DNA of 64,000 nucleotides from an uncultured Planctomycetales bacterium (GTDB lineage: Bacteria > Omnitrophota > Gorgyraeia > Gygaellales > Profunditerraquicolaceae): positions 26,006 to 90,005 of the forward strand of contig CAZYCL010000005.1 of the NCBI GenBank assembly GCA_964645795.1, read 5' to 3'. Each line of letters opens with the position of its first letter. The stretch's first letter is position 1. A program made the translations under genes and the position numbers. The notes under the pieces are model-generated. The model did not search any database and was not told the DNA's origin. It was given only the letters and a program-made list of their open reading frames with translations. Positions 6,605-64,000 of the stretch are shown one piece after another.

Positions 6605-6612
6605 TTTAAAGC

Positions 6613-7398: not shown

Positions 7399-7448
7399 AA
7401 GTGATTGTTAGCCTTTTTCTTGTGCTTAATGGCCATCGAGGAAGGCAA

Positions 7449-7476
7449 TTTATTATACCTCTATCGTCTCATAATT
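7449..7476 (-). promoter_or_regulatory. Putative sigma70-like promoter for wzm-wzt and the downstream radical SAM genes
   Basis: On the minus strand there is TTGAAT (plus 7471..7476), a 16-nt spacer, and TATAAT (plus 7449..7454). It lies in the 147-nt AT-rich gap between the SGNH gene stop (7546) and the wzm start (7398). Confidence 0.3.
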
Positions 7477-7545
7477 CAAGAGTAAGATGTCTTCTCTGGG
7501 GGCAGGCCGGGCACGCCGCAATATATATATTATTAAAGATAAAAG

Positions 7546-8571: not shown

Positions 8572-8583
8572 GCCGTGCTATTC

Positions 8584-9612: not shown

Positions 9613-9629
9613 CTTGGCTCCTTGTGCGA

Positions 9630-15519: not shown

Positions 15520-15534
15520 AACACCCTTTCATGC

Positions 15535-16236: not shown

Positions 16237-16251
16237 TTATGCTTTCCTTTT

Positions 16252-21519: not shown

Positions 21520-21570
21520 TTTATTAATTTATATTTATATATGTTTAGCGCGCAGCCTGTGCGCAGGATT

Positions 21571-21600
21571 AAAAAAAAGGGCTCTTTGAATGCAGAGCCC
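21571..21600 (-). terminator. Rho-independent terminator downstream of the GT2 gene at 21686..22735
   Basis: On the minus strand: GGGCTCTGCATTCAAAGAGCCC followed by TTTTTTTT. The plus strand shows A8 at 21571..21578 and the stem GGGCTCT/AGAGCCC at 21579..21600. Confidence 0.55.
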
Positions 21601-21685
21601 ATGAGTATCCCGATATTTTTCAATTTATTTTACTTTCCCCCCAGATATTTATTAACGTAACTTATTGCGGTTACGATACTTTTTA

Positions 21686-22735: not shown

Positions 22736-22753
22736 TATAGCGGTATACCCCTT

Positions 22754-41152: not shown

Positions 41153-43489
41153 ATGATCTCCGGAAAAAAAGCTCTTCCTCTTATTGCCCTCTGTGCTATC
41201 CTAATCTTTCATCTTGGTGCTAACTTCATCTGGCTAAGGCTTGATAAAACCGACCTCCTCTATGACGCCCACCACCATTATCTCTTCAGCCTTACAGTCT
41301 TTGACCAGATGCGCTCCCATATACTGCCTTCGTTGTCCGAGGTCCTGGAGCGCATCGGGCCGCATCACCGTTGGCACGGTATATTCCCCGGATACGCAAC
41401 TGCCCCTTTCTACTTTTTCTTCGGCGTCAGCCAAGATGCCGGGGTGATGGCAAGCTCTCTTATATTTCTTACCGTACTGATCCTGGCTACTTACGGAATA
41501 GGCAAGACGTCGCTGGACCAAAAATCCGGCGTATTGTCTGCGTTCATCGTGGGCATGTATCCGGCAGTTTTCAACCACTCAAGGCTCTATATGCTCGATC
41601 TTCCGCTGACCTCCATGGTAGCCCTTAGCATATATTTGCTTTTAAAATCAGATGACCTGAGGCTAAAAAGGTACTTTCTGCTATTTTCCGTTGCTGCGGG
41701 CCTCGGCCTTCTTTGTAAATTCAACTTCCTGATCTTTGTCTTCGGCCCCTTTATTTATATTTTGATACGCGCGCTGTTGGTCCGGGCGGCAGGCAGCAAG
41801 AAGCGCATAGCCGTTAATCTGCTGCTTGCCCTGGGGATCGCCGCGCTCATAATCATGCCGTTTTTGGCGCTCAAGCACAACGAGCTAAAAATGAGGATCT
41901 ATGAATTCTCCAGGCTAAACCCTGCTTACTCTGGTGGGTTTAGCTCATGGGCAGAGGCCTTAAAGGGGTGGGCGGCGTCATTTACCGACTATCTGTTATG
42001 GGCGGTCCCGGAGACCGTAAACACATTGACATCTTTCATGTTTTTTTTACTGTTGGCGCTGGCGCTCCCGTTTTTTCTGATAAAAAAGTGCCGCTTCAAG
42101 GCAGCCATCGTTCTCTGGGCCTTCGCGCCGTTTGTGATACTGGCCTCTTGCTTCCTTTGTCAGAATATCAACAGGTACCTGATGCCCAGCCTGCCGGCCT
42201 TGGCAGTCGTCTGCGGCGTAGCGATCTCTTCCATAACCAATAGCGCCATTCGTAAGGCAACTACCGTGCTTATTGTCTTCTTTGGGATATGGCAATATCT
42301 GGTCATATCTTTCAATCTTGGCTTCTGCGTGCCGGACGAGAAGCTTACTATCCCCATTCGCATCAACAGGCAATGGTCGGCCTTTACAGAGCCTTCTCTT
42401 GACATTAAGCTGCTTAATCCAAGGATAAACCCCGGCTATAGAAACGGCGCTGCCGCGGCCAGTTATCCGGACCGTCATAACCTGCCCTATCGGCCGATCC
42501 TGGAGCGGATACTTGCCTCTTCGTCGGGGATGGCCGTGCGCCCCATCAATCTCTTCTTTACCGACGATATCCCGGAAATCTATGAACCGATGGAGTATCT
42601 GGCCTTTGCTGGCCGCCTTCCGTTGCTTTTTTCGATCAATCCGCGCGTCTTCGAGCCCTCCAGGTGGAGCTGCCAAAACGTTGCGCTTTCAATCTCCGGC
42701 GCAGATTATATCATCGCCGCGCAAAACACGGTTTCCGCAGACCTGCCTGACCGGATCAAAAAAAACATTGCCGCCTCCAGGAACTATCTGGACAGGTATC
42801 TGGATTCGTTCGCGCTTCTTGGCTCCTGGCCTTTGGGGCAGGATAACCGGCTCCTGCTTTACCGGCGCAAAGAAGGGTACTCGGAAATATCCAGCGGCCG
42901 GCTGCGGCTGTACTTTCGCAACGGCATTATAAAGCTTTTCTCTGCCTGCGGACCGGTCCTGATCAATGAAGGCCTGGAGGCATGGGTTTACGCCGGGAAT
43001 AACCGGTACAGCTCTTGCCTGGGCAATTGGAGCATGCATAATATATCCGGTGATGAGATCAGGGCCGAGGTGTCCTGGCCTGATATAAATACCAGGCAGC
43101 GCTGGGTCCTGCGCCTGCAGAAAGAAAAACTGCTTGTCAACATTAAGACCTCTACGGCCAGGGCGCCCCATCCGCAAGGAGCAGGGTACTCTCTATACCT
43201 GAACCCAAAATATGTGCGCTTCTCTACGGCTGGCCTTAAGCCGCGGCTGCTTCAGAAAGGGGTGATTGCTGACAACGTCGTGGCTCTTGAGCAAGAGGAG
43301 CTGCCTCTTTGGTTTCATGCGGGCCGGATGGACGGATTTAAGTTTTTTTCTCAGGCGCCCGTGCAGAAGATGACGTTAGCTGCGCAAAAAGAGTTTGTAA
43401 GGATAAATGTTTATGCTTGGCCGGTCAACTCCGAGATGACAAAAGAGCTGGCGTTCTATCTATGGTTTGGTGCGGATAATACAAAGTAA
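41153..43489 (+). CDS. GT-C fold glycosyltransferase (ArnT/PMT-like, families GT39/GT83) with a large C-terminal soluble domain
   Basis: About 11 TM helices at the N-terminus with a first-loop DxxxD-type motif; 778 aa. Confidence 0.6.
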   Translation: MISGKKALPLIALCAILIFHLGANFIWLRLDKTDLLYDAHHHYLFSLTVFDQMRSHILPSLSEVLERIGPHHRWHGIFPGYATAPFYFFFGVSQDAGVMASSLIFLTVLILATYGIGKTSLDQKSGVLSAFIVGMYPAVFNHSRLYMLDLPLTSMVALSIYLLLKSDDLRLKRYFLLFSVAAGLGLLCKFNFLIFVFGPFIYILIRALLVRAAGSKKRIAVNLLLALGIAALIIMPFLALKHNELKMRIYEFSRLNPAYSGGFSSWAEALKGWAASFTDYLLWAVPETVNTLTSFMFFLLLALALPFFLIKKCRFKAAIVLWAFAPFVILASCFLCQNINRYLMPSLPALAVVCGVAISSITNSAIRKATTVLIVFFGIWQYLVISFNLGFCVPDEKLTIPIRINRQWSAFTEPSLDIKLLNPRINPGYRNGAAAASYPDRHNLPYRPILERILASSSGMAVRPINLFFTDDIPEIYEPMEYLAFAGRLPLLFSINPRVFEPSRWSCQNVALSISGADYIIAAQNTVSADLPDRIKKNIAASRNYLDRYLDSFALLGSWPLGQDNRLLLYRRKEGYSEISSGRLRLYFRNGIIKLFSACGPVLINEGLEAWVYAGNNRYSSCLGNWSMHNISGDEIRAEVSWPDINTRQRWVLRLQKEKLLVNIKTSTARAPHPQGAGYSLYLNPKYVRFSTAGLKPRLLQKGVIADNVVALEQEELPLWFHAGRMDGFKFFSQAPVQKMTLAAQKEFVRINVYAWPVNSEMTKELAFYLWFGADNTK

Positions 43490-43493
43490 ACGC

Positions 43494-44327
43494 ATGGTCA
43501 GCGTAATAATTATCACTTATAACCGCGCCCGGCTCCTTAAAAGGTGCCTCGATAGCCTGTTGGCGCAGGCTGCCGCCGGGGCCGCGGAAATTATCGTCGT
43601 CAATAACGGCTCCACCGATAATACCGCGGAACTGTTAGGCAATGAGTACTGCGGCCGGATAAAGCTCATTGACACTGCCCCGAAAAGCTTGTCCGCCTGT
43701 AAACAGATGGCTTTCGATGAAAGCCGGGCAGATACCGTTGTTTTTCTCGATGACGACTGCGTGCCCAAGGAGGGATGGCTGGAGCTCATTAAAAAGTCCT
43801 GCCGCACTTATGACATACTGGGAGGGGCGGTGCTGGCTGAAGAGGGGACTGAATTTCCTCGATGGTGGAGATCCTCCTTGAACTGGCTTATCGGGATAAA
43901 CCCCGATCCCGGCTTCTCCTATCTTCCGCTGGGCAGCAATATTGTCTTCAACAGGAAGGTGCTGGAAAAGATCAACCCCATGCTTAAATCCTCGGTCTCT
44001 GTGACAATCGGGCCCCTGCCTTACGCCGAAGACTATCTGCGAGTAAGGTTAGCGCTTGCCTGCGGATTCTCAATAGGCTTCATCAAAGAGGTGGCGGTCT
44101 TTCACTATGTTCCTGCCCAGAGACTAAAAATTGGCTATCTGATAAAAAGAAGCTGTTATGAGGGAACTGCGCGCGCGCGGGTAGAAAGATCTATCCCCTT
44201 ACTTTTGCGCTCTTTTCTGGGCATCTTCTATAACCCCGTCCTATTGCTCTTGTCTGCCGATATCAATAGGCTCTTCCGCTTCCTGGCTTCAGCAAGCTAT
44301 ATCTTAAGCTACCATCGCAAGCGTTAA
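43494..44327 (+). CDS. Glycosyltransferase family 2
   Basis: MVSVIIITYNRARLLKRCLDSL, VVNNGSTD and LDDD motifs. Start placed at ATG 43494, just after the upstream stop. Confidence 0.65.
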   Translation: MVSVIIITYNRARLLKRCLDSLLAQAAAGAAEIIVVNNGSTDNTAELLGNEYCGRIKLIDTAPKSLSACKQMAFDESRADTVVFLDDDCVPKEGWLELIKKSCRTYDILGGAVLAEEGTEFPRWWRSSLNWLIGINPDPGFSYLPLGSNIVFNRKVLEKINPMLKSSVSVTIGPLPYAEDYLRVRLALACGFSIGFIKEVAVFHYVPAQRLKIGYLIKRSCYEGTARARVERSIPLLLRSFLGIFYNPVLLLLSADINRLFRFLASASYILSYHRKR

Positions 44328-45340
44328 TCCGCATTTACAATCTTGTGTAATGCCAGTCCTTCGCAGATAGCACAATCAAAGTTGCAGTCGCATTTACCGT
44401 CCCGGATGATCTCTCGAGAGCGTCTGGCCTCATCCGAGGTCCAGATATCCATAAATGACTCCTCCAGCATGTTGCCTATGGTCGCGCTAGACCAGCAGAA
44501 CTTCACGGAGCCGTCGCTTAACAATTTAACTGAAGTGACTGCCTGGTAGCATTCCAGGCGCCCGCAGCTGCGCGTAAAAGGACTATCCTTGCGCCTGACT
44601 GCCCTGGCAAGGCTACCTCTTAACCAGACAAGCCAGCGGGAGTAATCGCCCCTCTCTTTTTCGCTGAGCGCAAACCTTCGGTTGACGGACTCATCCGGTG
44701 TATCGCTAAACGTTTGTATAAAATGCCCTATCCCGTGTCTTAAGGCAAATAATTTCACGCCCAACAGGTCCAAAGGTTTTATCTCTTTGGACATAACCGA
44801 AACCAGGGAAAATGAAATAGCGGGAAACTTCTTCCTGACCTTAATGCAATTGGAAAAGGCCTCTTTAAAAAGCCGCATTTCGAAGCTCCTCAGCCTTTTG
44901 AATTTTCTCGGGTCAAGAGTATCTATGGAAATGTTTATCCTGTTCACTCCTGCCCTGATTGTCTCTTCAAGGAAACCGTAATCTCTGAAGCGCAGCCCGT
45001 TGGTACATAATTCGATGGTCTTTATTTTGCATTTTGCCGCATGCCTGATGAGACTCTGGAATCCCGGCCAGATCGTAGCCTCTCCGCCGCTTAAGCAAAG
45101 CCGTTGCGGTATACCCCACGCGCATATCTCGCCGATGAACTCTGACAGGCGTTCGAAAGTAAGCAGGCTGCCGGTTTTCTCCTGGTGATAGCAGTAAGCG
45201 CAACGGCTGTTGCAGGATGTAGTAATAGAAATCATTAGGTCCATAGGGGCAAGGCTGGGGGCGCAGTCAAGATACGACTTCTTGATTAGTGACTGCTTTT
45301 CTTCTGATATGGCCTTACGCATGGAAATCGCGCTTATCAA
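44324..45340 (-). CDS. Radical SAM / SPASM-domain enzyme
   Basis: CNSRCAYC core, and a C-terminal SPASM pattern CGRLEC...FCW...CDCNFDCAIC. Confidence 0.75.
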   Translation of the reverse strand: MISAISMRKAISEEKQSLIKKSYLDCAPSLAPMDLMISITTSCNSRCAYCYHQEKTGSLLTFERLSEFIGEICAWGIPQRLCLSGGEATIWPGFQSLIRHAAKCKIKTIELCTNGLRFRDYGFLEETIRAGVNRINISIDTLDPRKFKRLRSFEMRLFKEAFSNCIKVRKKFPAISFSLVSVMSKEIKPLDLLGVKLFALRHGIGHFIQTFSDTPDESVNRRFALSEKERGDYSRWLVWLRGSLARAVRRKDSPFTRSCGRLECYQAVTSVKLLSDGSVKFCWSSATIGNMLEESFMDIWTSDEARRSREIIRDGKCDCNFDCAICEGLALHKIVNAD

Positions 45341-46709
45341 CCGCCTTAAAAAAATATAAAGCTGCCAGATAAAGAATGGGGGCGATGATCAATGAAGGGA
45401 AAAACTCTGTCTTAAAGTAACGAATGAGCGCAAACATAATCAAACCGGATAAAACCGGCTTAATCGAAAAGTATGCCAAGGCCTTGGAGTATTCCTTTGT
45501 TGCTTTCCTGAAGTACGCTAAAACCTGCCCTGTAGCATAAGCGACCAGCGATACAAACGCAGCTCCCAGGAAACCATAACGCGGGATCAACAACAAGTTA
45601 AGCGCGACACTAATGGCCGCGGAGATGCCCGTGAAGAATGGGTCCAGCCTTTGCTCGTGTGCGGCGATGAGAATAACATTGACCGCAACCCCCGCGAATA
45701 CGAAGATTTCGCCCCACATCAGGACCGCAAAAGCAGGCGAGGCGGAAATGAACCTTTCTCCGTATAGCAGGGAAATAATCTGCTTTGAAAACATGGTCGA
45801 GTAAAAAGCCAGGGGGATTATTATTATCAAAAAGTATTTTATCAGCATGCGGTAACGTTTTTTAAACTCCTCCTTTGAAGAATCGAAGGATTTTGATAAC
45901 AGTGGCAGCATCGAAATAGCGAATGCCGCCGGAATGACGTTTAAGCTCTCGGAAATCCTGGTCCCCGCAGAATATAAACCCAGAGAAACATCGCCGTTGA
46001 ACTTGTAGAGCATTATGTGGTCAAAGCGATGGTAGATAAAGATAAAGATTGTGCTCAAGCCCAATGGCCAGGATTCCCCGAAGATCCTGCGCCACAAAGC
46101 TGGTTCTAATTTAAATACGGGCTTTATGAGCCTATCGGCAAAGAACATCAGCGCAACAAGCGCCGCCAGATATATGAATACCGAGTAAAAATAATAGTCT
46201 ATTAGGCCTTTGCCCCTGGAGGCTAGCCCAAGCACAAGCAGTATCATCAGCGCTTTTTTAGATAAATTCAAGAAGACAACATATCCCATTTTCAGCTTAA
46301 ACTGGAATACCGCTTCATAGACACAGCTTATGGAAAAAACCAGCATAGTAAGCGTTGCGAATGCCGATAAAACCAGCATTCCTGCGTCCGGACGGATAAA
46401 CCAAACGGTGACCCAGAACGCCAGCATTGCGCACAACGATATTGCGGCCTGTATCATAATGCAATTTCCGAAAAGCAGGGGTGCGAATCTTTCCTGCCTT
46501 GACATCTCGCGTATCAAGATCGGTCTGAACAGCTGGCTGTTAAGGGAAGAGAGGAGGAAAAGGAAAACCGAGAGAAAAGAAAGCTTGCCGAAGCCGCTTT
46601 CTCCGAAGCAACGGGCTATAGAAGCCGCCAGCACCAAACCGATTAGGTTCTCCGCGAAATTGCCTGCGATAATAACGAAGCTATTTTTTATTATTTTTTC
46701 CATTACCAT
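45315..46709 (-). CDS. wzx: Wzx-type oligosaccharide flippase (MOP superfamily)
   Basis: 464 aa, about 12-14 TM helices, polysaccharide-biosynthesis-protein pattern. Confidence 0.6.
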   Translation of the reverse strand: MVMEKIIKNSFVIIAGNFAENLIGLVLAASIARCFGESGFGKLSFLSVFLFLLSSLNSQLFRPILIREMSRQERFAPLLFGNCIMIQAAISLCAMLAFWVTVWFIRPDAGMLVLSAFATLTMLVFSISCVYEAVFQFKLKMGYVVFLNLSKKALMILLVLGLASRGKGLIDYYFYSVFIYLAALVALMFFADRLIKPVFKLEPALWRRIFGESWPLGLSTIFIFIYHRFDHIMLYKFNGDVSLGLYSAGTRISESLNVIPAAFAISMLPLLSKSFDSSKEEFKKRYRMLIKYFLIIIIPLAFYSTMFSKQIISLLYGERFISASPAFAVLMWGEIFVFAGVAVNVILIAAHEQRLDPFFTGISAAISVALNLLLIPRYGFLGAAFVSLVAYATGQVLAYFRKATKEYSKALAYFSIKPVLSGLIMFALIRYFKTEFFPSLIIAPILYLAALYFFKAVDKRDFHA

Positions 46710-47658
46710 TTTTATAATAATCCATTAAGCATTGCGCAAGAAAACCCTGGTTATAGGCCAGGTAACGCCCGTAATCAAGCAACCCGTAAAGTAATGCGCG
46801 CCGGATACCGAGCCCCTGGCCGTAATAATGCGCGCCTTTAAATAATACCGCAATAATGTTGGCGGCCGCCTTTATTTGTTTCAGCATCCAGATCAATGTC
46901 GCCCCGGTTATTTGGGCAAAATTGTATCGGCGCCTCTGAGGCGATCCGGATGTATTTAGGCATAGATAGCCGCCCTTGCCGTAATTATGGCTGGTTTTAA
47001 ACAGCTCTGCGGCTGTTGCCTTGTGCCGGGTATAAACCACGGCGCGCATATTATACTGGAAAAAATATCCGAGCTTTTTAAGCCTGATGCACAAGTCCAG
47101 GTCTTCTCCTCCTGGCATAATAAAACTTTCATTAAAGCCTCCCGCAGCACAAATGGCGGATCTTCTAAAAGCTGCGTTTGCGCTGATAAGACAGTATATG
47201 CCTTTATTATCCATAAGGGGTGTTTCGTTCAGGCGTATCCATGCGCAGTATTGGCTTACCGGCGAAGCTGCAGGCCGGGACTCTACCCTACCTCCCACGC
47301 CAGCCAGAAGCTGGTCCTCCTCAAAGGCGCCCGCCATTTCAGCGATCCAGCTCTCGCAGGCAACGCAGTCAGAGTCGATGAACGCAATTATCTGGCCACG
47401 GGATCTGCCAAGACCAAGGTTGCGCGCAGAAGCTGGCCCGCTGTTCTGCTGGAAAAAATAATAGAGCCGGCGGTCAGAGTTGCTTATAAGGGGCTGGACG
47501 GCTTCGGCGGTTGTGTCTTTAGAGCCGTCGTCAACGACTATAATCTCATATTGGTCCTTAGGGTAGGTCTGGCGAAAAAGCGATTTCACCGTCTCTGTTA
47601 TCGAATCGGCTCCGTTAAAAACCGGCACTATCACGCTTACAAATGGGGTATTGACCAT
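46681..47658 (-). CDS. Glycosyltransferase family 2
   Basis: VSVIVPVFNGADSI, VDDGSKD and DSD motifs. Confidence 0.7.
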   Translation of the reverse strand: MVNTPFVSVIVPVFNGADSITETVKSLFRQTYPKDQYEIIVVDDGSKDTTAEAVQPLISNSDRRLYYFFQQNSGPASARNLGLGRSRGQIIAFIDSDCVACESWIAEMAGAFEEDQLLAGVGGRVESRPAASPVSQYCAWIRLNETPLMDNKGIYCLISANAAFRRSAICAAGGFNESFIMPGGEDLDLCIRLKKLGYFFQYNMRAVVYTRHKATAAELFKTSHNYGKGGYLCLNTSGSPQRRRYNFAQITGATLIWMLKQIKAAANIIAVLFKGAHYYGQGLGIRRALLYGLLDYGRYLAYNQGFLAQCLMDYYKNGNGKNNKK

Positions 47659-47665
47659 GGTCTGA

Positions 47666-48529
47666 TTACCGCAGTATTTCTCTCATGACCGCCTTTGAAT
47701 TTTTCCACATGAACAAAATCATGCAGAGGCTGTCCAGGGGCAGTAATTCGCTTCTGCCGCTCAACGAATCTTCTTCAAATAAGCGCTTTAAAAGAAGCGC
47801 CTGTTCGTAGAACCTGCTCAAACCCGCTGCTACTCTTCTAAGCTTATTCTGACTGCGGCCCGGCAATATGCTTACGGGCTCCTGCCACCCCCAGTAATTT
47901 CTTAACACTGACGTGACGGTATCGTTGCGTAAATGACTGACCTGTGCCTGGGGCTCATAGATCAGCTTGAAGCCCTCCCGATAAATTCGCCGGGACAGCT
48001 CTACATCCTCATAATTATTGACCAATCCGGCGTCGTAGAAACCGATCTTCTTAACTATATCCTTTTTAAATACGGTGTTGGAGCCATACAAAAACGGCGG
48101 ACAATCCAGAATATGTTCACCCCAGGCCTGAACCATGTGTGCGGCCCTCCACCTGTCGGCGACCCTGTCCTGGTTGGTCTCCGTCAGCCTGCCGCCCGCT
48201 CCGGCTACGCCTTCCTTTACGGCATGCCCCATAAGCCTCTCCAGCCAATAACTATCGGCTTGGCAATCAGAGTCGATAGTAGCGACAAACTCATGCCTGG
48301 ATTCACGGAAAGCGATATTGCGCGAACAGGACAACCCTTTGTTTACGCTATTTCGTATGACCCTTGCCCCGTAACCCTCGGCCTTTTTTGCCGTGTCATC
48401 GCTTGATCCGTCATCGATAACGATTATCTCTGCGGCCTCATACGTCTGACCGATCGCACTCTCCAGGCAGCGTTCGATCGTCTTTGAAGAGTTATAGCAG
48501 GGTATATAAAAAGAAACCTTCTCCTTCAT
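47666..48529 (-). CDS. Glycosyltransferase family 2
   Basis: VSFYIPCYNSSKTIERCLESAIGQTY, IDDGSSD and DSD motifs. Confidence 0.7.
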   Translation of the reverse strand: MKEKVSFYIPCYNSSKTIERCLESAIGQTYEAAEIIVIDDGSSDDTAKKAEGYGARVIRNSVNKGLSCSRNIAFRESRHEFVATIDSDCQADSYWLERLMGHAVKEGVAGAGGRLTETNQDRVADRWRAAHMVQAWGEHILDCPPFLYGSNTVFKKDIVKKIGFYDAGLVNNYEDVELSRRIYREGFKLIYEPQAQVSHLRNDTVTSVLRNYWGWQEPVSILPGRSQNKLRRVAAGLSRFYEQALLLKRLFEEDSLSGRSELLPLDSLCMILFMWKNSKAVMREILR

Positions 48530-49611: not shown

Positions 49612-49614
49612 AAT

Positions 49615-52319: not shown

Positions 52320-52320
52320 C

Positions 52321-56719: not shown

Positions 56720-56843
56720 ATCAGCCCCCGGGGAAAATAGTGGTCCTTTTGACGGCCTTCAACAGCCAAAGCGCGGCATCGAACAAAAATGAGAGGAGAA
56801 AAAGGGAGATTGTGACAAGCGCCTTTAATACGGGCTTCATAAT

Positions 56844-58535
56844 CTAATAGTATTGGTAGAGGTCGTACTTCTTAAGCTCGTTGAGCGTCCTGATGATGGT
56901 CTGATGATTGTCGCAGTGGTCGCAGTGCTCATCGTAGAGGACCTGGCCGTTGGCGAACTTCGCCTGGGTATTGTCTTTGAGGTACTTTGCCTGCCTTCTC
57001 CAGCGCCAGTAATCCCTTGAGTTCCAGACGTCCCGGAAGCGCTGCCGGTCAAGGTAGCCGACGGTGCGCAGATGGCAGCAGAAGCTCATATCATACTTGG
57101 CCGGAATCAGGTTGAAGTACCATCCGATGGTGCAGCCGTGCTTAAGAAAGAAATCCTTGGACCAGGCGCCGGTCTTCTCGTCGTAATGGCCGAGCTGGAA
57201 GGCAAAGTTATCCACCAGTTCAATTTTTTTGCCCCTCAGTATCTCTTCCGCCCGCGGGACCTGTTTGCGGATCGCCTCCATCTCTGCGGGGCTCAATTGC
57301 AGGAACCTGTTCATATGGTCGAGTCTTATAAGATAAAAGCGCACCGCATCCGGGGCTATATCGGCATCCATTTGCGCCATCTCTACCAACTCATGGTGGT
57401 TTAGCGTATGGATAACGTGGCTGACTATGAGCCTGGGCTTGTCCTTGCCCGCTTCTCTCTTAAGCCTCATAAACTCTTTCAGGTTGTTCCAAACGCGAAA
57501 AAATGTCTCGCCGGGCTGAACGGTAGAGATCTTGCCGTAGGTCTGGGCGCTTCCGGCTGGGAAGCTGCAGTATATCTCATCAACGCCCAGATCGATGACC
57601 TCCCTGGCTATCTGACGGTCAAGCAATATCCCGTTCGTAAAAAACATCACGCCCAGCCCTTTCTGCCTGGCATACCTTAACATGGGCATGAATTTGTCGT
57701 ACATCAATGGCTCACCGTCGCCCTGGAGTATAATGCCGTCGGTCTTCATCTCGGAGGCGTCGTCGATTATCCCCTTGAATATATCGAAATCGAACTTTCG
57801 GTCCAAAAACTCCTGCGGATGATGCACTCCGGGCGTATGTACCCAGCAGTGCTGGCATTTGGTATTGCAGCGATGGTAGGGATCGAAGACTATTGTCTGC
57901 GGACCAAGGAATGCCTGCTCTGAAATCACCCCCAGAAGCCTTAAAAGCTCCTTTTCCCTGCCCGGGTTGACTTCCGAATGAAGGCCGATCTTGTTGAGTA
58001 TCTCCATAAGCTTGTCGTCTTGATAAAGAAACTCGATATTAAGCCCACCGACGCGCTGTTTCAGCTTTTCTAAATAATCCAGGAAATGGGCTGCAATATC
58101 TTTTACGGGAAAAAGCTGCAGTTCCAGGCCGCTAAAATCCCTATTATCTCCCAGGGAACCTGCGATCATCTGCGCTATCAAGTGCAGGCGGCCGAAGTTG
58201 TATCTGGAGATGCCTATGCTGATGGCGGCAGCGGGGGCGCGCGCTTTAGATCTCTCTATCAAGGCGACCTTCTCGTTGAAGCCGTCATTGCATCCGGCTA
58301 TCCGGTCATGCAGCTCCTCAAAATCACCCAATATCAGAATATTGCCAACCGCCATTTCCTTAGCCTCCGCCTTTTTCGAGATCGCCGTATCTTGCGCCAT
58401 AGGATGCCTGCAAAACGCCTTGATATAGCGTGATATTAACGCCGGCTCCCGGAATAATCTCCCGGCCTTCTTAAAAGATGCGCTTTTTATCTCCGAAAGT
58501 AATATACCGGCTTTCTTAAAATATCCGCTGTACAC
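56844..58535 (-). CDS. Radical SAM enzyme with a ~230-aa N-terminal extension and a Cys-rich C-terminus (paralog of 2316..3767)
   Basis: CNTKCQHC core; shares LFPVKDI and a CDHCDN C-terminus with the 2316..3767 protein. Confidence 0.7.
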   Translation of the reverse strand: MYSGYFKKAGILLSEIKSASFKKAGRLFREPALISRYIKAFCRHPMAQDTAISKKAEAKEMAVGNILILGDFEELHDRIAGCNDGFNEKVALIERSKARAPAAAISIGISRYNFGRLHLIAQMIAGSLGDNRDFSGLELQLFPVKDIAAHFLDYLEKLKQRVGGLNIEFLYQDDKLMEILNKIGLHSEVNPGREKELLRLLGVISEQAFLGPQTIVFDPYHRCNTKCQHCWVHTPGVHHPQEFLDRKFDFDIFKGIIDDASEMKTDGIILQGDGEPLMYDKFMPMLRYARQKGLGVMFFTNGILLDRQIAREVIDLGVDEIYCSFPAGSAQTYGKISTVQPGETFFRVWNNLKEFMRLKREAGKDKPRLIVSHVIHTLNHHELVEMAQMDADIAPDAVRFYLIRLDHMNRFLQLSPAEMEAIRKQVPRAEEILRGKKIELVDNFAFQLGHYDEKTGAWSKDFFLKHGCTIGWYFNLIPAKYDMSFCCHLRTVGYLDRQRFRDVWNSRDYWRWRRQAKYLKDNTQAKFANGQVLYDEHCDHCDNHQTIIRTLNELKKYDLYQYY

Positions 58536-58553
58536 TCTCCCCCCGCTGCCGCC

Positions 58554-59633
58554 TTAGACCAGGACAAAAGGATAGTCTTGTTTGAAATAACAGTTTAAAA
58601 GAAAATGGCAGTTATTCCTGCAGCCATGGATCTGCGCCCTGGCCTCTTTTGCCTTATCCGAGAACCAAAGCCGGCTGACATCATCGCTGGATATATTTCC
58701 CAGCGGCAAACAGTTATAGCACAAAAAGACATCCCCCCGGGAGCTGACATGAAGCGCTGAATCCATATTGCATTTTGTTTTCTTTACGAACCTCTCCGGG
58801 GCCTGATAATAGAGATCGAAGGCCTCCAGCTGCGCCAGGCTATTGGTGATCTTGGAGCTGCCGCTTTTTAGTCTTATCAGCTCTGCGATCACCGCGTGCA
58901 CTTTTTTCTTATCGCGCGGCCAGAGCATGCTGAATTCTTCATTCTCATACCAGCGCTTGTCCGGAATGGTGTTGTTGGGCTGCATCGCCGCCATAAAATA
59001 TACCGAGTTCAATCTCGGATCCTCTTGCGCCCACCGGGCCAGATTCAATATGTCATCCAGATTCTTATCGTATATGACGGCGCAGATCCCCTTGTAAAGG
59101 CCGTCGCATCTTTCATCAAGCAGCCCGATCGCGCCTATCGCCTTATCGTAGGCCCCCTCCACCCCCCTCAAGTAATCATGGACAGACCTGTTGGTGCTGT
59201 CCAGGGATATAATTATGCTTTCCAGGCCGGAATCGTTGATCTTCTCGGCCATCACTTCGTCTATAAGATAGCCGTTGGTGGCTATGTTGGTGGCAAATCC
59301 TTTCTGTGCGCAAAAACTTACAAGCTCCAGCGTTTCTTTTTTTAAAAGCGGCTCTCCGCCTCCGAAGTTTATCTGCAGCCTGCCCCGGCATATCCGGCGC
59401 AGCGATATAACGCAGCGCTTCCAGTCCTCTAAGCTGGCTTCCTTTGCCTTATCTGTAAAAATGTCGTCCTGCCACTTCCTGCACATCTTGCAGCGCAGCA
59501 TACAGTCGTCAGTGATGCCGAAGCAGACGAACTCCGGACGCAGACGCTCATCTTTAGTAAAAGAGGCCAGGACCGAGCTTGTCTCGTGCCTGACCAAAGT
59601 AATCAGGTCTTTAATGCTGCGCTGGGCTCTCAA
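58554..59633 (-). CDS. Radical SAM / SPASM-like enzyme
   Basis: CMLRCKMC core; C-terminal CYNC...GCRNNCHFLLNC. Apparent TTG start, with an in-frame stop 8 codons upstream. Confidence 0.7.
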   Translation of the reverse strand: MRAQRSIKDLITLVRHETSSVLASFTKDERLRPEFVCFGITDDCMLRCKMCRKWQDDIFTDKAKEASLEDWKRCVISLRRICRGRLQINFGGGEPLLKKETLELVSFCAQKGFATNIATNGYLIDEVMAEKINDSGLESIIISLDSTNRSVHDYLRGVEGAYDKAIGAIGLLDERCDGLYKGICAVIYDKNLDDILNLARWAQEDPRLNSVYFMAAMQPNNTIPDKRWYENEEFSMLWPRDKKKVHAVIAELIRLKSGSSKITNSLAQLEAFDLYYQAPERFVKKTKCNMDSALHVSSRGDVFLCYNCLPLGNISSDDVSRLWFSDKAKEARAQIHGCRNNCHFLLNCYFKQDYPFVLV

Positions 59634-59709
59634 TGTTTTATAAGTTTCTCTTGCCTAGCGGCTGAACTGGCGCCAATCTATGCCTTTTATCAAACAGTTC
59701 AAGCGCCAG

Positions 59710-59742
59710 AAAAAATACTTTATGCCCCTGTAAAGGGCATAA
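59710..59742 (-). terminator. Rho-independent terminator after the UGM-like gene
   Basis: 8-bp perfect stem TTATGCCC/GGGCATAA (59720..59742) with a 7-nt loop. On the minus strand it is followed, after 4 nt, by TTTTTT (plus A6 at 59710..59715). Confidence 0.55.
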
Positions 59743-59769
59743 GGCAGACCGCCCTTATTGCAGTGCTTT

Positions 59770-61122
59770 TTAAACTTCTGCCATCCGGTTTCCTTCATAT
59801 CCACCCCTCGTATTCTTGGCATCCCAGACCGCTGCCTCTGCGGCCACATGCCTTGCGTCCAAGATCACCTCTTCCATCGACAGGTATCTCCATGAGCCGT
59901 ATCTGCCCGCAAGCAGTATATCCCTGCTTTTAAGGTAGCCGGCGATCTCCCTCCTTACCTGTTCGTAGACATGGTCGTATATAGGATAGCCGTATTTTAT
60001 GTCGTTTATGTCCTCGGCTATTATCTTTTGCCCGGTACTTATGATCCCTACCTTGCGCAAATCGGAAAGGATGCGGCCGATGATCCTGTTTTTGTCAGGC
60101 CTGGCATCTTTGGAGTAGGAGACTTCGGTATAAAGCGCGCTTGTGCCTTTGGGGGCCAGGGACGGTGAAAAATTATGAAAGAACCCCGCCCGGAAGAAGC
60201 TTATTTGCGGGTCGGGAAAATAAACCCAGTGCCGGCCAAGATACTCCCTGCCGCACAAACCGATATTAAAATTGAAGATCGAGTTCCACCTCAGCTTCTT
60301 GAATAAAGCAGCCTGCGCCGCCGGCAGCCCCTTGGCCAGCCCCGGCAGTTCCGGCAGCGGGATTGTAGAGATCAGGACGTCGTATTTTACCGACTGCCCC
60401 GAAGAAACCCGAATTTGCTTATTAACCAGGTCTATTTCGATCACTTCCGAACCGCGATGGATATTCTTGAGGCTTCCTGTAAGTGCGGCGGGCAGCTCGT
60501 TTATCCCTCCATGCTTGGGATACCAGAAATGCGCGTTATATCCCAGGGGCTTCTTGTTCTCTTTGATCGTTCCTTCGACTATCTGATTTAGCGAAGGCAC
60601 GGGTATGACCCCTTCAAGCCAGCTGCAAACCATATCCTGCGGCTCAACCGTCCAGAACTTGCGGTTGTAGGGCACCATGAAGTATTTGGCGATGCCGCTG
60701 CCGAACTTACCGTTTATCCACTCAAGAAAATTACCGGGCTGGCAACAATGGCCGTTTTTAGAACTCTCAATGAACCCCATAAGGCACTCTTTGACTACGG
60801 GTGCCGGCAGCCCATAGAGGTTTGCCTGGAAAGGGTAACGGGTGTACCTGTCGTAAGAATAAACCCAGGAGCTTTTATGGTGGCCGCCGAGGTTCTTTTT
60901 AAGCAGCTTTTTAACCAGTCCGAATGCGTAGTTGCTTTTAAAATGAAGGAGATGCCCGTCGTAGTCAAAAGTAAAACCCTTGATCTTTTTGGAGCGGCAC
61001 AGGCCCCCGGTCTGCGCCTCCTTCTCGAAGAGTTGGCAGTCTATGCCTTTTTTTTGCAGATGCCAGGCTGTGCTTAAGCCACTTAAGCCCGCCCCCAGTA
61101 TCAAGACTTTGGAATTAGCCAT
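59770..61122 (-). CDS. FAD-dependent oxidoreductase, UDP-galactopyranose-mutase-like (amine-oxidase superfamily)
   Basis: Rossmann VLILGAGLSGLS...EKE...GG. YNRKFW and C-terminal GRYGSWRYLSMEEVI resemble the UGM motifs Y.EKQWG and GRLAEYKYYDMHQVI. Confidence 0.5.
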   Translation of the reverse strand: MANSKVLILGAGLSGLSTAWHLQKKGIDCQLFEKEAQTGGLCRSKKIKGFTFDYDGHLLHFKSNYAFGLVKKLLKKNLGGHHKSSWVYSYDRYTRYPFQANLYGLPAPVVKECLMGFIESSKNGHCCQPGNFLEWINGKFGSGIAKYFMVPYNRKFWTVEPQDMVCSWLEGVIPVPSLNQIVEGTIKENKKPLGYNAHFWYPKHGGINELPAALTGSLKNIHRGSEVIEIDLVNKQIRVSSGQSVKYDVLISTIPLPELPGLAKGLPAAQAALFKKLRWNSIFNFNIGLCGREYLGRHWVYFPDPQISFFRAGFFHNFSPSLAPKGTSALYTEVSYSKDARPDKNRIIGRILSDLRKVGIISTGQKIIAEDINDIKYGYPIYDHVYEQVRREIAGYLKSRDILLAGRYGSWRYLSMEEVILDARHVAAEAAVWDAKNTRGGYEGNRMAEV

Positions 61123-62107
61123 CTATCACCACCCTGCTCATAATCAGGCCAAGAACAAGGCTGACCGACAACACTATAAGGATAAACGCCAGGGACAACG
61201 CCGGCGCGGCCAGCATTACAAATATCCCGGAAACCGAGTAGAGCAGCGCAAGCATCGACATCGCCACCAGCGCCCTCCTTGGGGAATGACCGTTCTTCAG
61301 GAAGCGCAGCGCCAAATGATCGTTGCTTTTTTTAAAGATCGAGCGGGACTTAAACAGGCGCATCAGCATAAGAAAAGAAGTATCGAAAATCGGCAGCCCG
61401 AGTATCAGGAATGGGCTCATGAGGGCGAATTTATTCTCTTGCGAGGCGTACTTCAATACCAGGGCCGCGGAAGCCAGGAAAAAACCCATAAAATGGCTGC
61501 CGTTATTTCCCATGTATACTTTTGCCGGCGGCAGGTTAAACACCAAAAAGCCGGCTAGCGCCCCGATAAAAGAACAGATAAGCAGGGCCATGACTGCATC
61601 GCCGCGCAGGAGCGCAACCGCCATAAACCCCAGCCCGCAGACCAGCCCCGTTGAGCCGGCCAGGCCGTCTATTATATCAAGATGGTTGACCGCATTAGTG
61701 ATGAAGATCACCCAAAGAAAGGTAATGGCGATGTTTGCGCCCAACCCTATATGCATGATCTGCGTAGTCACCCCGAAGAAAACAAGCATACAGACCGCCA
61801 GTATCTGGGAACTGAATTTGGCCTTGACCGACAACTCCCGAATATCGTCGATAACTCCGATCACCAGCATAAAGAATGACGTCATGATGATGACCGCTGC
61901 CTCGGAGCAAAAACTTCGCCTGAAAAGCATCGCCAGGCAAAAGGCGCAAATAAAGGCCAGGCCGAACGCCACCCCGCCGGTAAGCGGCATGCCTTTCAAA
62001 ATAAGCAGGTTGCGCCTTAAGGATATCTTGCGCAGTATAAAAGTAAAACCGCAGCTTAATGCAAACGCCGCGGCAGCAACGGATAATAAACCGTACGTTT
62101 GGCTCAT
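61115..62107 (-). CDS. Polyprenyl-phosphate N-acetylhexosamine-1-phosphate transferase (WecA/WbpL/MraY family)
   Basis: About 10 TM helices with conserved DD-containing loops (VIDDIRE, NAVNHLDIIDGLAGS). Confidence 0.7.
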   Translation of the reverse strand: MSQTYGLLSVAAAAFALSCGFTFILRKISLRRNLLILKGMPLTGGVAFGLAFICAFCLAMLFRRSFCSEAAVIIMTSFFMLVIGVIDDIRELSVKAKFSSQILAVCMLVFFGVTTQIMHIGLGANIAITFLWVIFITNAVNHLDIIDGLAGSTGLVCGLGFMAVALLRGDAVMALLICSFIGALAGFLVFNLPPAKVYMGNNGSHFMGFFLASAALVLKYASQENKFALMSPFLILGLPIFDTSFLMLMRLFKSRSIFKKSNDHLALRFLKNGHSPRRALVAMSMLALLYSVSGIFVMLAAPALSLAFILIVLSVSLVLGLIMSRVVIDG

Positions 62108-62135
62108 TGGCTGTTCGTTTTCCCCAAATACATAT

Positions 62136-62163
62136 ATTATAATATATTTAAATGTGCGTTCAA
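62136..62163 (-). promoter_or_regulatory. Putative sigma70-like promoter for the WecA-like gene
   Basis: On the minus strand: TTGAAC (plus 62158..62163), a 16-nt spacer, TATAAT (plus 62136..62141). It is about 30 nt upstream of ATG 62107, in an AT-rich 74-nt gap. Confidence 0.35.
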
Positions 62164-62181
62164 GTTTGAAGTGTGGTTAAA

Positions 62182-63567
62182 TCAAGAAAGCTCTTTTGAC
62201 CAGACGTCAAAATCACTCTGCCCGCAATACTTGCGGCCGGAGTAGATGCCGCTAAGTAACGCCCTGTCGGAGTTATCGTAACGAAAGAGCCCTCCCCTGC
62301 CCATGGTTTGAAGATTTTCAAAGCCTGCAAGATATTGCTTCAATATACCCAACTTTTCCAGATACCCGCATGAATAGACGGGATAAGCGTTCTTGTAGCG
62401 CACCACAAAACCACTGATAAGATGCCTCTGCGCTCTTATGCCGATCTTTTCCAGCTCTCCCACCGCGTAATCGATAAGGTCAATATCATTCATGCCCCAT
62501 AAAGGCTCTTTTGGGGAACAGAAATACTCCAGCCCCAGGGCAGTCTTATGAAAATCCGCCACCATTGCCGGACTCCAGTTTTTATAGTTCTGTATCCTGC
62601 AGAGCCGGACATCCGGAGAGTGGACATATATCCACTGATCGGGGAAAAGGTCTTTTTTATCAAGGATTATGTTGACCGCCAGAAAACTCCTGAAGCTCAA
62701 TGCCTCTGCCGCATCCAGTACATGGGCCGGCGCGTGAGGATCCATGAGCTTGATCAGGTCGGTAATAGCCGCGCTTGAAAAAACGTGGTCCGCCCGGATC
62801 ACCCGCAGCGCCCCCGTTTCGCGGTCCAGTGATTCAACGGACAGCACCCTGCGGTTATCGTGACGCAGCCCTACCACATCGTTATTGAAAAGGGTCTGTG
62901 TTCCGTTATCAGCGATTATCTGGCCGAAGCGCCTGTAAAATTCTCCCGGCCCCGTGCGCGGGTACCGGAACTCCTCTGCCAGGGTCTTGGGGCTGTTATA
63001 CTTGAGGTTCAGGGCATCCTGTATTGCTATGCGAAGCGACAACCCTCTGATCCGTTCGGCGGCCCAGTCAGCGGAAAGTTCGCGGCAAGAGATATCCCAG
63101 ACTTTTTTGTTGTAGGATTTGAAAAATATATCGTAGAGGCGGCTCCCGAAGCGGTTGATGATCCATCCCTCGTAAGTGCTGTCGTCTTCGGGCTTTAGCG
63201 CTTTACACCAGAGGTAGCTGCCTACGCATAAAGCGCTTTCAAATATTCCGAGGTTCCAGAAGGTATTAAAGAAGGAAAGGGGGTAATTGAAGTATTTTCT
63301 TCTGTAGTATATGCGGGACTGTCTTTTGACCCTGAGCATATCGCTGCCCATGACCCTGTCCCAAAGTCCTTTTATCTCTTCGTGATCCGAGAGGAAGCGG
63401 TGGCCGCCGATATCAAAGAGGTAGCCGTTAAAGCTTATGGTGCGGCACAGGCCGCCGCAGGAATCCTCCCTCTCTATCACCAGGGTGTTTTTCTTTGCCT
63501 GGCCCAGGGCATAGGCGCACCCCATGCCTGCCGGTCCGGAGCCGATAATAACGATCTCTTCTTTCAT
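62182..63567 (-). CDS. FAD-dependent oxidoreductase, long-form UDP-galactopyranose-mutase-like
   Basis: IVIIGSGPAGMGCAYAL...ERE...GG Rossmann; YNKKVWDISCRELSADWAAERI resembles eukaryote-type UGM YNFKVWA...AWLGERV. Start set at the internal ATG 63567 (MKEEIVIIGSG); the track start is 63684. Confidence 0.5.
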   Translation of the reverse strand: MKEEIVIIGSGPAGMGCAYALGQAKKNTLVIEREDSCGGLCRTISFNGYLFDIGGHRFLSDHEEIKGLWDRVMGSDMLRVKRQSRIYYRRKYFNYPLSFFNTFWNLGIFESALCVGSYLWCKALKPEDDSTYEGWIINRFGSRLYDIFFKSYNKKVWDISCRELSADWAAERIRGLSLRIAIQDALNLKYNSPKTLAEEFRYPRTGPGEFYRRFGQIIADNGTQTLFNNDVVGLRHDNRRVLSVESLDRETGALRVIRADHVFSSAAITDLIKLMDPHAPAHVLDAAEALSFRSFLAVNIILDKKDLFPDQWIYVHSPDVRLCRIQNYKNWSPAMVADFHKTALGLEYFCSPKEPLWGMNDIDLIDYAVGELEKIGIRAQRHLISGFVVRYKNAYPVYSCGYLEKLGILKQYLAGFENLQTMGRGGLFRYDNSDRALLSGIYSGRKYCGQSDFDVWSKELS

Positions 63568-64000
63568 GATGGCCTTGCCCCTCTTGCGCACGGCAAAAGC
63601 GTCTTCCTTCCAGATGCTACCCGGATAACCCCGCAGATCGCCCCTAATCCCATCGTTATGTTGTCCAAAAAGGTGAACAGACAAGACCGTAGCGCGAAAA
63701 ACAGCCCCCTCTCCCTGTAAAGGAATTTAAAAAAATCGTAATTCATCGTCACCCATATAAAAACCGCGGCCGCGGCCAAAACAAGCAGCCCGGGAAAATA
63801 AGCGGCTGCCGCCAAAAGCGGCAAAGTTAAACAAATAACAATGATGCTTGATATTTGCCGGGGCCTGGCATGGGCAAAACCCCTATCAAGCCTGCCGATC
63901 TGCGAAAAACCTTTATAGGAGATGAATAATCGCGCCCATTCAAAAGGGACCATGAAATCATTCTTCAACAGAGAAAGAAACCCGTACTTCTTCAGGTGCG
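63564..64000 (-). CDS. Hypothetical membrane protein, C-terminal fragment (frame open to the window end)
   Basis: The frame has no stop between 63968 and 64000. Hydrophobic segments (IIVICLTLPLLAAAAYFPGLLVLAAAAVFIWV). Confidence 0.35.
   Translation of the reverse strand, partial: HLKKYGFLSLLKNDFMVPFEWARLFISYKGFSQIGRLDRGFAHARPRQISSIIVICLTLPLLAAAAYFPGLLVLAAAAVFIWVTMNYDFFKFLYRERGLFFALRSCLFTFLDNITMGLGAICGVIRVASGRKTLLPCARGARPS

Follow-up and report, generated by a model that had tools for sequence, protein, structure and literature searches.

A radical SAM-rich gene locus with a putative role in surface-glycan assembly in an uncultured Omnitrophota bacterium

Gene content and layout of the locus

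A stretch of 64,000 nucleotides from an uncultured Planctomycetales bacterium (GTDB lineage Omnitrophota; assembly GCA_964645795.1, contig CAZYCL010000005.1, positions 26,006 to 90,005 of the forward strand), hereafter the window, carries between positions 41153 and 64000 a locus in which four genes for radical S-adenosylmethionine (rSAM) enzymes are embedded among glycosyltransferase (GT) and glycan-export genes. The gene content was called from the listing of open reading frames (ORFs) together with Pfam and NCBIfam scans of this part of the window, and comparison loci in public genomes and metagenome contigs are denoted by L-numbers (L004, L064 etc.). The interpretation as a glycan locus, proposed in an earlier sequence-only reading, is supported, and the recurrent linkage of the rSAM genes to GT genes indicates that they are part of the locus and not accidental. 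Dozens of independent contigs show the same gene order, so the locus is more than a chance assembly. Two modules, each conserved elsewhere, make up the gene string. The locus represents, in compact form, an uncharacterised block of wide distribution, and most of the block's named relatives are Omnitrophota.

Along the minus strand, the string runs through Wzm, Wzt, GT2, FADb, WecA, FADa, ORF47, rSAM4, rSAM3 and ORF39, followed by GT4d, GH5 (a gene resembling glycoside hydrolase family 5), GT4c, GT4b, rSAM2, GT4a, GT2c, GT2b, Wzx and rSAM1, where it converges on GT2a and GT-C of the plus strand. All genes from Wzm to rSAM1 lie on a single strand, with short gaps or overlaps between them, and from this spacing we infer an operon. 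The left boundary is sharp, with genes for a tRNA-binding-domain protein, a CxxCxxCC-domain protein, an LPG-synthase-like protein, an RNase T-family exonuclease and hyp (hydrogenase-maturation) functions lying beyond it. An Rfam scan of the whole window revealed no riboswitch or other RNA family. Between 44100 and 64000, 38 terminator-like hairpins were counted, most of them within genes, as compared to 22.9 +/- 4.3 in shuffled sequences.

The inventory proposed earlier is borne out at the positions given for GT-C, Wzx, the WecA-like initiator, the GH5-like hydrolase, two flavoproteins resembling UDP-galactopyranose mutase (UGM) and the four rSAM genes. The transferase count holds in part: the four GT2 genes are present (three complete, one cut by the window end), but four GT4 genes are found instead of five. 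GT-C (41153-43489, plus strand, 778 aa) is PMT_2/ArnT-like, with 46.8 bits to PF13231 and 34.1 bits to PF02366; hydropathy and Pfam analysis suggested several hydrophobic segments in its N-terminal half and a C-terminal domain of ~380 aa without a family match. Its orthologs in L007, L009-L012, L056 and L070 are 33-38% identical. GT2a (43494-44327, plus strand; PF00535, 87 bits) has orthologs adjoining GT-C in Omnitrophota loci with 31-46% identity. The remaining genes are on the minus strand. GT2b (46681-47658) and GT2c (47666-48529) match PF00535 with 115 and 117 bits, respectively, while the last GT2 (63564-64000) runs off the window as an open frame whose C-terminal part ends in hydrophobic helices; in the public assembly of the same contig (L004) the full gene covers 1868-2884 and encodes 338 aa. 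The four GT4 genes are GT4a (48526-49611; PF00534, 114 bits), which is of the DUF1972 type (PF09314, 26.9 bits against a cut-off of 25), GT4b (51093-52331; PF00534, 128 bits), GT4c (52321-53430; PF13692, 71 bits) and GT4d (55553-56719; PF00534, 90 bits).

Two export systems are encoded in the string. The flippase Wzx (45315-46709; PF01943, 89 bits; PF13440, 64 bits) has multiple hydrophobic segments. Just past the right edge of the window, L004 carries a Wzt gene (1105-1848, 247 aa, PF00005) directly upstream of the cut GT2, and a Wzm gene (281-1108, PF01061), beyond which the contig ends. The description of the locus as Wzx-dependent is therefore right as to the presence of Wzx and does not hold as to a sole route, since Wzm and Wzt belong to the same gene string and export need not proceed only through Wzx. 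Of the components of a Wzx/Wzy pathway, Wzx and the initiator are present, while Wzy and Wzz are not; the Wzm and Wzt pair of an ABC-dependent pathway is supplied by the L004 genes. The reported lack of wzy and wzz agrees with the Pfam scan, which gave no such match, and with hydropathy, by which only GT-C, Wzx and WecA are strongly hydrophobic and multi-spanning. There is also no WaaL-type gene in the locus. The initiator (61115-62107), a polyprenyl-phosphate phosphoglycosyl transferase of the WecA/MraY family with multiple hydrophobic segments, scores 110 bits to PF00953 and 77 bits to the WecA model TIGR02380, below its cut-off of 326.

The flavoproteins FADa (59770-61122; PF01593, 77 bits; PF13450, 58.5 bits) and FADb (62182-63591) flank WecA. 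FADb belongs to the PRK07208 family (NF005548, 531 bits against a cut-off of 389), and its best matches in the PDB are UDP-galactopyranose mutases of the eukaryote type (4dsg, E 6.5e-20, residues 4-441 aligned), which makes the label UGM-like a fair one. FADa scores 150-160 bits to PRK07208-type models, under their cut-offs, and both proteins fall far below the cut-off of 303.75 of the UGM equivalog TIGR00031 (FADa 33.7 bits, FADb 26.4 bits). Public records of FADb and rSAM2 begin at starts other than those of the 461-aa and 493-aa forms. The GH5-like hydrolase (53427-55556, 709 aa) matches PF00150 with 40.7 bits against 23.5, over profile positions 13-169 of 272, and carries a WNEP motif; its putative nucleophile Glu was assigned by eye. 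A hydrophobic segment at residues 5-25 points to an exported protein, and an N-terminal domain of ~370 aa shows no family match. At E<1, Pfam gave no match for this domain, the C-terminal domain of GT-C or the N-terminal domain of rSAM3.

All four rSAM proteins contain the CX3CX2C motif and match PF04055, and the SPASM domain (PF13186, cut-off 21.5) is above threshold in rSAM1 and rSAM4. The proposed comparison with sugar-acting rSAM enzymes yields weak matches to AprD4 for rSAM2, to DesII and BlsE for rSAM3 and to BlsE for rSAM4, but none of the four reaches any curated family cut-off.

The rSAM2 cassette

The first module comprises GT-C, GT2, rSAM1, Wzx, GT2, GT2, GT4, rSAM2 and GT4, and is found with 35-53% identity in Omnitrophota and in one Planctomycetia metagenome-assembled genome (MAG) (L007-L013, L056). 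The whole cassette of GT-C, GT2a, Wzx, GT2b and GT2c, GT4a, rSAM2 and GT4b, with rSAM1 as a variable member, is kept in these genomes. rSAM1 (44324-45322; PF04055, 70.7 bits; PF13186, 33.1 bits) stands at the cassette end and displays the cluster motif CNSRCAYC along with the SPASM cysteines. Its orthologs follow Wzx in L009, L010 and L056 with 48-49% identity, and its best PDB matches, MoaA and SkfB, cover the core only.

rSAM2 (49615-51090; PF04055, 56 bits) lies between two GT4 genes. GT4a resembles the second-step transferases WchF and Cps2T, Cps2T being its best NCBIfam match (80.7 bits, under the cut-off of 500), and its orthologs flanking rSAM2 homologs are 44-52% identical. GT4b lies directly upstream of the rSAM2 homolog both in Omnitrophota loci, with 43-50% identity, and in those of Myxococcota, with 26-38%. 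A scan of the genome collection for the rSAM2 family with an 11-sequence alignment gave 55 genome loci in Omnitrophota, Planctomycetota, Sumerlaeota and Myxococcota, and a GT gene was found within 3 kb in 45 of them. The Myxococcota-type records (L018-L061), mostly named Myxococcota, Deltaproteobacteria or Proteobacteria with a few under other names, display the order GT4, rSAM2 homolog, one gene and a WecG/TagA-type transferase. An ABC gene lies ~4.4 kb upstream in many of these records, a context unlike the Omnitrophota cassette.

WecG and WchF both act on the first lipid-linked sugar. The position of rSAM2 next to enzymes of these types, and between two GT4 genes, suggests that it probably acts early, on a lipid-linked intermediate.

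By profile, rSAM2 is by far closest to HpnJ (TIGR03471), with 183.7 bits across almost its entire length, as compared to 89 for BchE, the next model. An N-terminal Rossmann domain joined to an rSAM core is common to HpnJ and rSAM2. However, this score reaches one third of the equivalog cut-off (577.6), hopanoid genes are missing from the surroundings, and the neighbours of the rSAM2 family are GT4, WecG, Wzx and GT-C. None of hpnI, hpnK, shc and hpnH was seen among the 18 locus or 30 flanking genes scanned. HpnJ, a non-methylase, has been proposed to act on a lipid-linked sugar by contracting its glucosamine ring; MoeK5 and Fom3 group with HpnJ in sequence networks (PMC9204698).

The AlphaFold model of rSAM2 (predicted local distance difference test, pLDDT, 91.8) was compared with solved structures by Foldseek. 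The best match is AprD4 (6fd2, TM 0.71/0.76), followed by OxsB, TsrM, MgmA, CysS and TokK, and AprD4 is also the best solved-structure match by sequence (E 2.5e-15, identity 19-21%). The CRYSCTFC motif and the N-terminal Rossmann-type domain, seen in the model and in Foldseek alignments covering both domains, conform to the class B pattern. AprD4 is the radical SAM 1,2-diol dehydratase of apramycin biosynthesis, which deoxygenates paromamine at C3' and has a Rossmann-like N-terminal domain. It differs from rSAM2 in working on a soluble aminoglycoside within a secondary-metabolite cluster, and rSAM2 scores 70.8 against 500 to its family model NF033070.

The earlier label of rSAM2 as a B12-binding enzyme is not borne out by Pfam, which gave no B12-binding match even at E<5, and B12 dependence is unproven because AprD4, the nearest solved fold, binds no cobalamin (PMC12931638). 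Most rSAM2 homologs do carry PF02310, unlike rSAM2 itself; no cobalamin genes were seen in the locus, and a profile comparison of rSAM3 with rSAM2 revealed no common N-terminal domain. The class-B architecture is shared with the cobalamin C-methyltransferases GenK, Fom3 and MoeK5. No match to models of these families was seen for rSAM2, and sugar C-methylation is a plausible reaction for it.

The HpnJ match also bears on the question whether the rSAM enzymes modify a lipid, i.e., whether they cross-link, cyclise or methylate the polyprenol carrier or a glycolipid anchor in the manner of Tes, HpnR or the ladderane enzymes. Hopanoid biosynthesis is the source of the NCBIfam model closest to rSAM2, the PDB matches of rSAM4 (1.1e-8) and rSAM1 (1.9e-7) include Tes (7tol), and membrane-tether modules, described below, are found on the enzymes; reviews list many lipid-modifying rSAM enzymes (PMC13459092). 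However, the proposed target of HpnJ itself is the sugar ring and not the hopanoid (PMC9204698), the Tes model gives just 30-45 bits against a cut-off of 450, and the locus contains no lipid or isoprenoid synthesis genes; the genes in synteny code for GTs, a glycoside hydrolase and exporters of glycans. A lipid substrate is thus quite unlikely.

The rSAM3-rSAM4 block, its arrays and two small genes

The second module runs rSAM4, rSAM3, GT4d, GH5 and GT4c, and in relatives identity rises to 76% for its rSAM3 and 68% for its GT4d. rSAM3 (56844-58535, 563 aa; PF04055, 55.5 bits) consists of an N-terminal alpha/beta domain of ~210 aa, the rSAM core and a C-terminal Cys-rich domain of partial SPASM/twitch character, in which C468, C486, C487, C538 and C541 are invariant although the SPASM score (19.0 bits) is below the cut-off. 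No other protein of the system is as well conserved; the homologs listed are 47-78% identical, the closest full-length ones 72-74%. Among the matches listed, the closest homologs are mostly ~567 aa long, which favours the GTG start giving 563 aa, and the named ones are nearly all Omnitrophota. rSAM4 (58554-59633; PF04055, 67 bits; PF13186, 28.1 bits) has orthologs of 60-61% identity in L064 and L065, and many further paralogs at 34-47%.

Scanning metagenome contigs with an rSAM3 alignment gave 57 loci, whose ORFs were classified against the window proteins; a neighbour is here the nearest gene recognisable with these proteins. The recurrent order is a variable number (N) of rSAM4-type genes, rSAM3, GT4d, GH5 and GT4c, then GT2 or GT-C. 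The neighbour upstream of rSAM3 is of the rSAM4 type in 39 of 47 loci, and the downstream one is GT4d in 24 of 42. GT4d, whose orthologs are 57-68% identical, starts 111-184 nt past rSAM3 in 21 of 29 loci. GH5 orthologs (41-51%) are placed between GT4d and GT4c in 11 loci, and GT4c orthologs (48-61%) keep the order in L070, L073, L074, L078, L084, L085, L094 and L124.

In relatives, the rSAM genes upstream of rSAM3 and GT4d form long tandem arrays that mix rSAM4-type with B12-type enzymes. Runs of 10-13 consecutive rSAM genes occur in 21-kb stretches (L064, L065 with L070, L071, L076, L078, L102), and a run of ~19-20 genes in a row lies on one 44.6-kb JGI contig (L065 with L070), where it is followed by a sulfatase-family gene, the rSAM3 ortholog, GT4d and GT-C. 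The window is the short, N = 1 version of this block. The CX3CX2C motif is kept in 149 of 152 rSAM4-type ORFs, and paralogs within an array are 25-47% identical, which together suggest that the rSAM4-type paralogs are old, active and probably of different specificity. Six rSAM4-family proteins (P0123, P0148, P0151, P0155, P0156, P0170), several named Omnitrophota, are 660-706 aa long; the three that were checked have two CX3CX2C motifs each, as expected of fused tandem rSAM/SPASM proteins.

Two small genes adjoin rSAM3 and rSAM4. The sequence-only reading had dismissed a small ORF at 59655-59849; it is a real, conserved gene for 47 aa (59655-59798), here ORF47, and a second one, ORF39 (56721-56840), had been missed. 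ORF47 encodes a basic and aromatic micro-protein whose homologs in L064 and L065 are 60-62% identical, stand in the same position directly upstream of rSAM4 and have strong ribosome-binding sites. Between L064 and L065, 13 codon differences are synonymous and 6 non-synonymous, with a third-position bias. Stand-alone homologs of 45-49 aa were found in a library of 1.84 billion proteins. The core motif is WQKF..H.K.GG.FYA..RG.KY, and the cysteines are not conserved. A 10-bp hairpin with a T-run (59742-59720) lies within ORF47 and is not kept in relatives; a spurious ORF over a terminator was rejected as an explanation, because the protein is conserved while the hairpin is not. In the window, ORF47 is in frame with rSAM4, with one TAG and seven codons between them. 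An extension of rSAM4 by TAG readthrough was likewise rejected, as the N-termini of rSAM4 homologs align to the TTG start of rSAM4 and the two genes are in different frames in L064 and L065.

ORF39 (MKPVLKALVTISLFLLSFLFDAALWLLKAVKRTTIFPGG, ending in IFPGG) was uncalled and fills the gap between rSAM3 and GT4d. This 39-aa single-pass membrane micro-protein, with hidden Markov model matches in ~35 loci, is predicted to have a basic N-terminus, one hydrophobic helix and the tail LLKKxKKxxIFPGG-COOH; most homologs carry an acidic residue, usually Asp, close to the helix end. It stands alone after rSAM3 or is fused (L098, L104, L106, L117), the fusions being the C-terminal tail of B12-type rSAM proteins of 544-573 aa just upstream of GT4d. 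A membrane anchor for GT4d only was rejected as a role for it: ORF39 follows rSAM3 in L078 and L086, where GT4d is 1.7-3.2 kb off, and likewise in L108, which yielded no GT4d homolog. Fusions of the ORF47 motif also occur, inside rS1072 (a B12-type rSAM protein of the sister array described below), at both ends of a 787-aa B12-type rSAM protein of L109 and N-terminally in a protein of L118. Since both peptides occur fused to rSAM enzymes, a role as accessory modules of the enzymes, namely membrane anchor and docking segment, is a better reading for them than that of substrates.

This bears directly on whether rSAM3, rSAM4 and the arrays are maturases of RiPPs (ribosomally synthesised peptides with post-translational modification), with ORF39 and/or ORF47 as precursors that the GTs might later glycosylate. 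Two conserved small ORFs directly beside rSAM genes would fit such a system, and so would the variable hydrophobic part and invariant C-terminal FPGG of ORF39, readable as core and follower; SkfB, SuiB, PqqE and CteB are among the structural or sequence neighbours, and the joint occurrence of B12-type and SPASM-type enzymes recalls the proteusins. However, both peptides are fused to enzymes, the ORF47 cysteines vary, and Pfam gave no PqqD or RiPP recognition element match in the four rSAM proteins and no peptidase or peptide exporter in the locus. The associated ABC ATPase is of the Wzt/TagH type and not a peptide exporter, and rS483, the rSAM3 paralog of the sister array, has no ORF39 after it, its next gene being 7 nt away. 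A RiPP system is, on balance, very improbable.

The rSAM3 model (pLDDT 86.9) finds DesII as its best Foldseek match (E 1e-12, TM ~0.45), followed by SkfB, SuiB, BlsE and anSME, and BlsE is the best match by sequence among solved structures (E 2e-5). For rSAM4, BlsE is also best in the PDB (E 7.5e-11), with Tes, CteB and PqqE among the other matches. rSAM3 shares with DesII and BlsE, which act on nucleotide-linked sugars, an rSAM core and a C-terminal Cys-containing extension; it differs in its additional N-terminal domain of ~210 aa and its membrane micro-protein partner, the TM-scores are only 0.39-0.46, and the locus has no nucleotide-sugar pathway genes.

These relatives raise the alternative that the rSAM enzymes act on soluble nucleotide sugars and so provide unusual donors for the neighbouring GTs, the assembled lipid-linked glycan not being their substrate. 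The DesII fold match of rSAM3 and the BlsE sequence matches of rSAM4 and rSAM3 speak for it, as do the two UGM-like flavoproteins in the string, whose known counterparts act on UDP-sugars. It is weakened by the scores, which stay far below the cut-offs of the DesII model TIGR04426 (rSAM3, 39.2 against 450) and the BlsE model TIGR04466 (rSAM4, 52.6, and rSAM3, 25.1, against 400), and by the Pfam scan, which gave no nucleotidyltransferase, 4,6-dehydratase or aminotransferase gene in the locus. Furthermore, ORF39 is a membrane-anchor module fused to rSAM enzymes, and arrays of at least 10 rSAM genes far exceed the GTs available for such donors. We regard this alternative as unlikely, though worth keeping in mind.

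The sequence neighbourhood of rSAM3 in L070 includes two sulfatase-family genes (8594-9973 and 15533-16930) and a small gene for 51 aa (15381-15536), which adjoin the rSAM3 ortholog and GT-C and are absent from the window locus. An anSME- or activase-like role, in which the rSAM proteins mature enzymes of the locus, e.g., the hydrolase, or sulfatase-family proteins in relatives, would draw on these two genes and on anSME (4k36) as a fold neighbour of rSAM3 (E 1.7e-9). However, Pfam gave no sulfatase in the window locus, anSME is not among the top NCBIfam matches, and it is implausible that one or two targets would need ten to twenty maturases, so that this role is scarcely to be expected.

A sister array of the same organism occupies the left end of the window (1-9966, minus strand) and continues in L066. 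It comprises genes for a PKD-domain protein (8584-9966), an SGNH/AlgX-like protein (7546-8571), Wzm (6613-7371), a Wzt of 946 aa (3764-6604) and rS483, a 34% paralog of rSAM3 (2316-3767), then rS1072, an rSAM protein of the B12 type with 1072 aa, which runs off the window at the left (5529-8747 in L066). Beyond rS1072, the same contig holds four rSAM/SPASM genes, a single B12-type rSAM gene and, truncated where the contig ends, a TPR gene. In its ATPase domain, this Wzt is closest to O-antigen Wzt (8dku, E 3e-63) and to TarH/TagH, and its 700-aa extension shows no family match. Residues 242-460 of Wzt form a domain common to the N-terminal repeats of rS1072 (aa 10-171 and 326-544), which may be a shared polymer-binding module; the domain has no Pfam match, nor has the Wzt extension or the N-terminus of rS1072 at E<1. 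In the Omnitrophota MAG of L063, an ABC pair with a long Wzt adjoins the GT-C cassette.

Another envelope-type cluster lies at 18356-26524 (minus strand) of the window. It carries a lysine-2,3-aminomutase-like rSAM gene, two ATP-grasp genes resembling D-Ala-D-Ala ligase, a GT2, an MsbA-like ABC exporter, a GT2 and a GT4.

A proposed pathway and its meaning

The interpretation we put forward, and to which we would give an even chance, is that membrane-tethered rSAM enzymes tailor a lipid-linked glycan in a composite locus of surface-glycan assembly. It builds on the tight synteny of the rSAM genes with GTs, GH5 and glycan exporters, on nearest characterised relatives that act on sugars (HpnJ, AprD4, DesII, BlsE) and on the glycan-exporter type of the sister-array ABC ATPase. 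The fusion of ORF39 and the ORF47 motif to rSAM enzymes and the apparent age and activity of the rSAM4-type paralogs point the same way, as does a preprint hint that GT1 and radical SAM domains co-occur in Omnitrophota giant proteins (doi 10.64898/2026.06.07.730766).

In the proposed pathway, WecA would initiate the glycan on polyprenyl phosphate at the cytoplasmic face, and the GT4 and GT2 enzymes would extend it, the UGM-like flavoproteins supplying furanose or otherwise isomerised sugars. Hydrogen abstraction by cytoplasmic rSAM enzymes would target sugar carbons in an intermediate that is lipid-linked or, less likely, nucleotide-linked. ORF39, with its transmembrane helix and FPGG tail, may tether rSAM3 and GT4d to the membrane, and ORF47 may serve as the docking module of rSAM4. 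rSAM2 could carry out an early step on a lipid-linked amino or hexose sugar, such as ring contraction, deoxygenation or C-methylation; each rSAM4-type enzyme would make one site-specific change, and rSAM3 a conserved step coupled to GT4d. The product would cross the membrane via Wzx and/or Wzm/Wzt, after which GT-C would decorate or transfer the glycan and the exported GH5 would trim it outside the cytoplasm.

Several observations weigh against this interpretation. The similarity of the four rSAM enzymes to characterised sugar-acting enzymes is far under the cut-offs and lies mostly in the common rSAM core. RiPP maturases match rSAM3 nearly as well as DesII (SkfB 2.5e-12, SuiB 1.9e-10), and two conserved small ORFs adjoin rSAM3 and rSAM4. 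The Pfam scans gave no Wzy, Wzz or nucleotide-sugar synthesis genes in the locus, and the putative operon, called from gene spacing, has a strong hairpin and T-run at 59742-59720 inside it.

As compared to known Wzx- and Wzm/Wzt-dependent pathways, with which it shares a WecA-family initiator, many GTs, Wzx and Wzm/Wzt, the locus differs in having both export types in one string, a PMT/ArnT-type GT-C and embedded rSAM genes. Its logic is analogous to that of the proteusins (polytheonamide), in which one polymer is edited by several rSAM enzymes, of the B12 type and others; that polymer, however, is a ribosomal peptide with an NHLP leader, while GTs and glycan exporters are found here. Full-text literature searches gave no description of rSAM-rich glycan loci or of Omnitrophota rSAM arrays, the nearest being capsule clusters of Campylobacter jejuni with single rSAM genes that are uncharacterised (PMC8743553).

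A bolder, tentative proposal, which we consider possible but doubtful, is that of an undescribed route in which, prior to export, a lipid-linked glycan has its carbon skeleton rewritten by a membrane-tethered rSAM battery. Such a battery might then consist of one rSAM4-type enzyme here and of 10-13 or more in relatives, along with HpnJ-like enzymes with a B12 domain. It would be built around an invariant rSAM3/ORF39/GT4d core, and the product could perhaps be a surface polysaccharide or a glycolipid head group. C-methylation, deoxygenation, ring contraction to carbocycles and C-C cross-links are conceivable candidate reactions. If true, the system would be the carbohydrate counterpart of proteusin-type peptide tailoring.

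We know of no bacterial cell-surface glycan pathway with more than an occasional radical SAM enzyme, and, to our knowledge, antibiotic pathways are the source of nearly every characterised rSAM enzyme that acts on sugars. There is a real chance that the locus points to new radical chemistry on a cell-surface glycan. The rSAM3/ORF39/GT4d/GH5/GT4c core and an HpnJ-like enzyme between GT4 genes recur across dozens of uncultured genomes, and this conserved core is a concrete, clonable target for new radical carbohydrate chemistry. The uncalled or dismissed micro-genes ORF39 and ORF47 also indicate that gene callers miss parts of the system. Omnitrophota is a phylum with almost no cultured members, and the block may help to explain the envelope of these bacteria.

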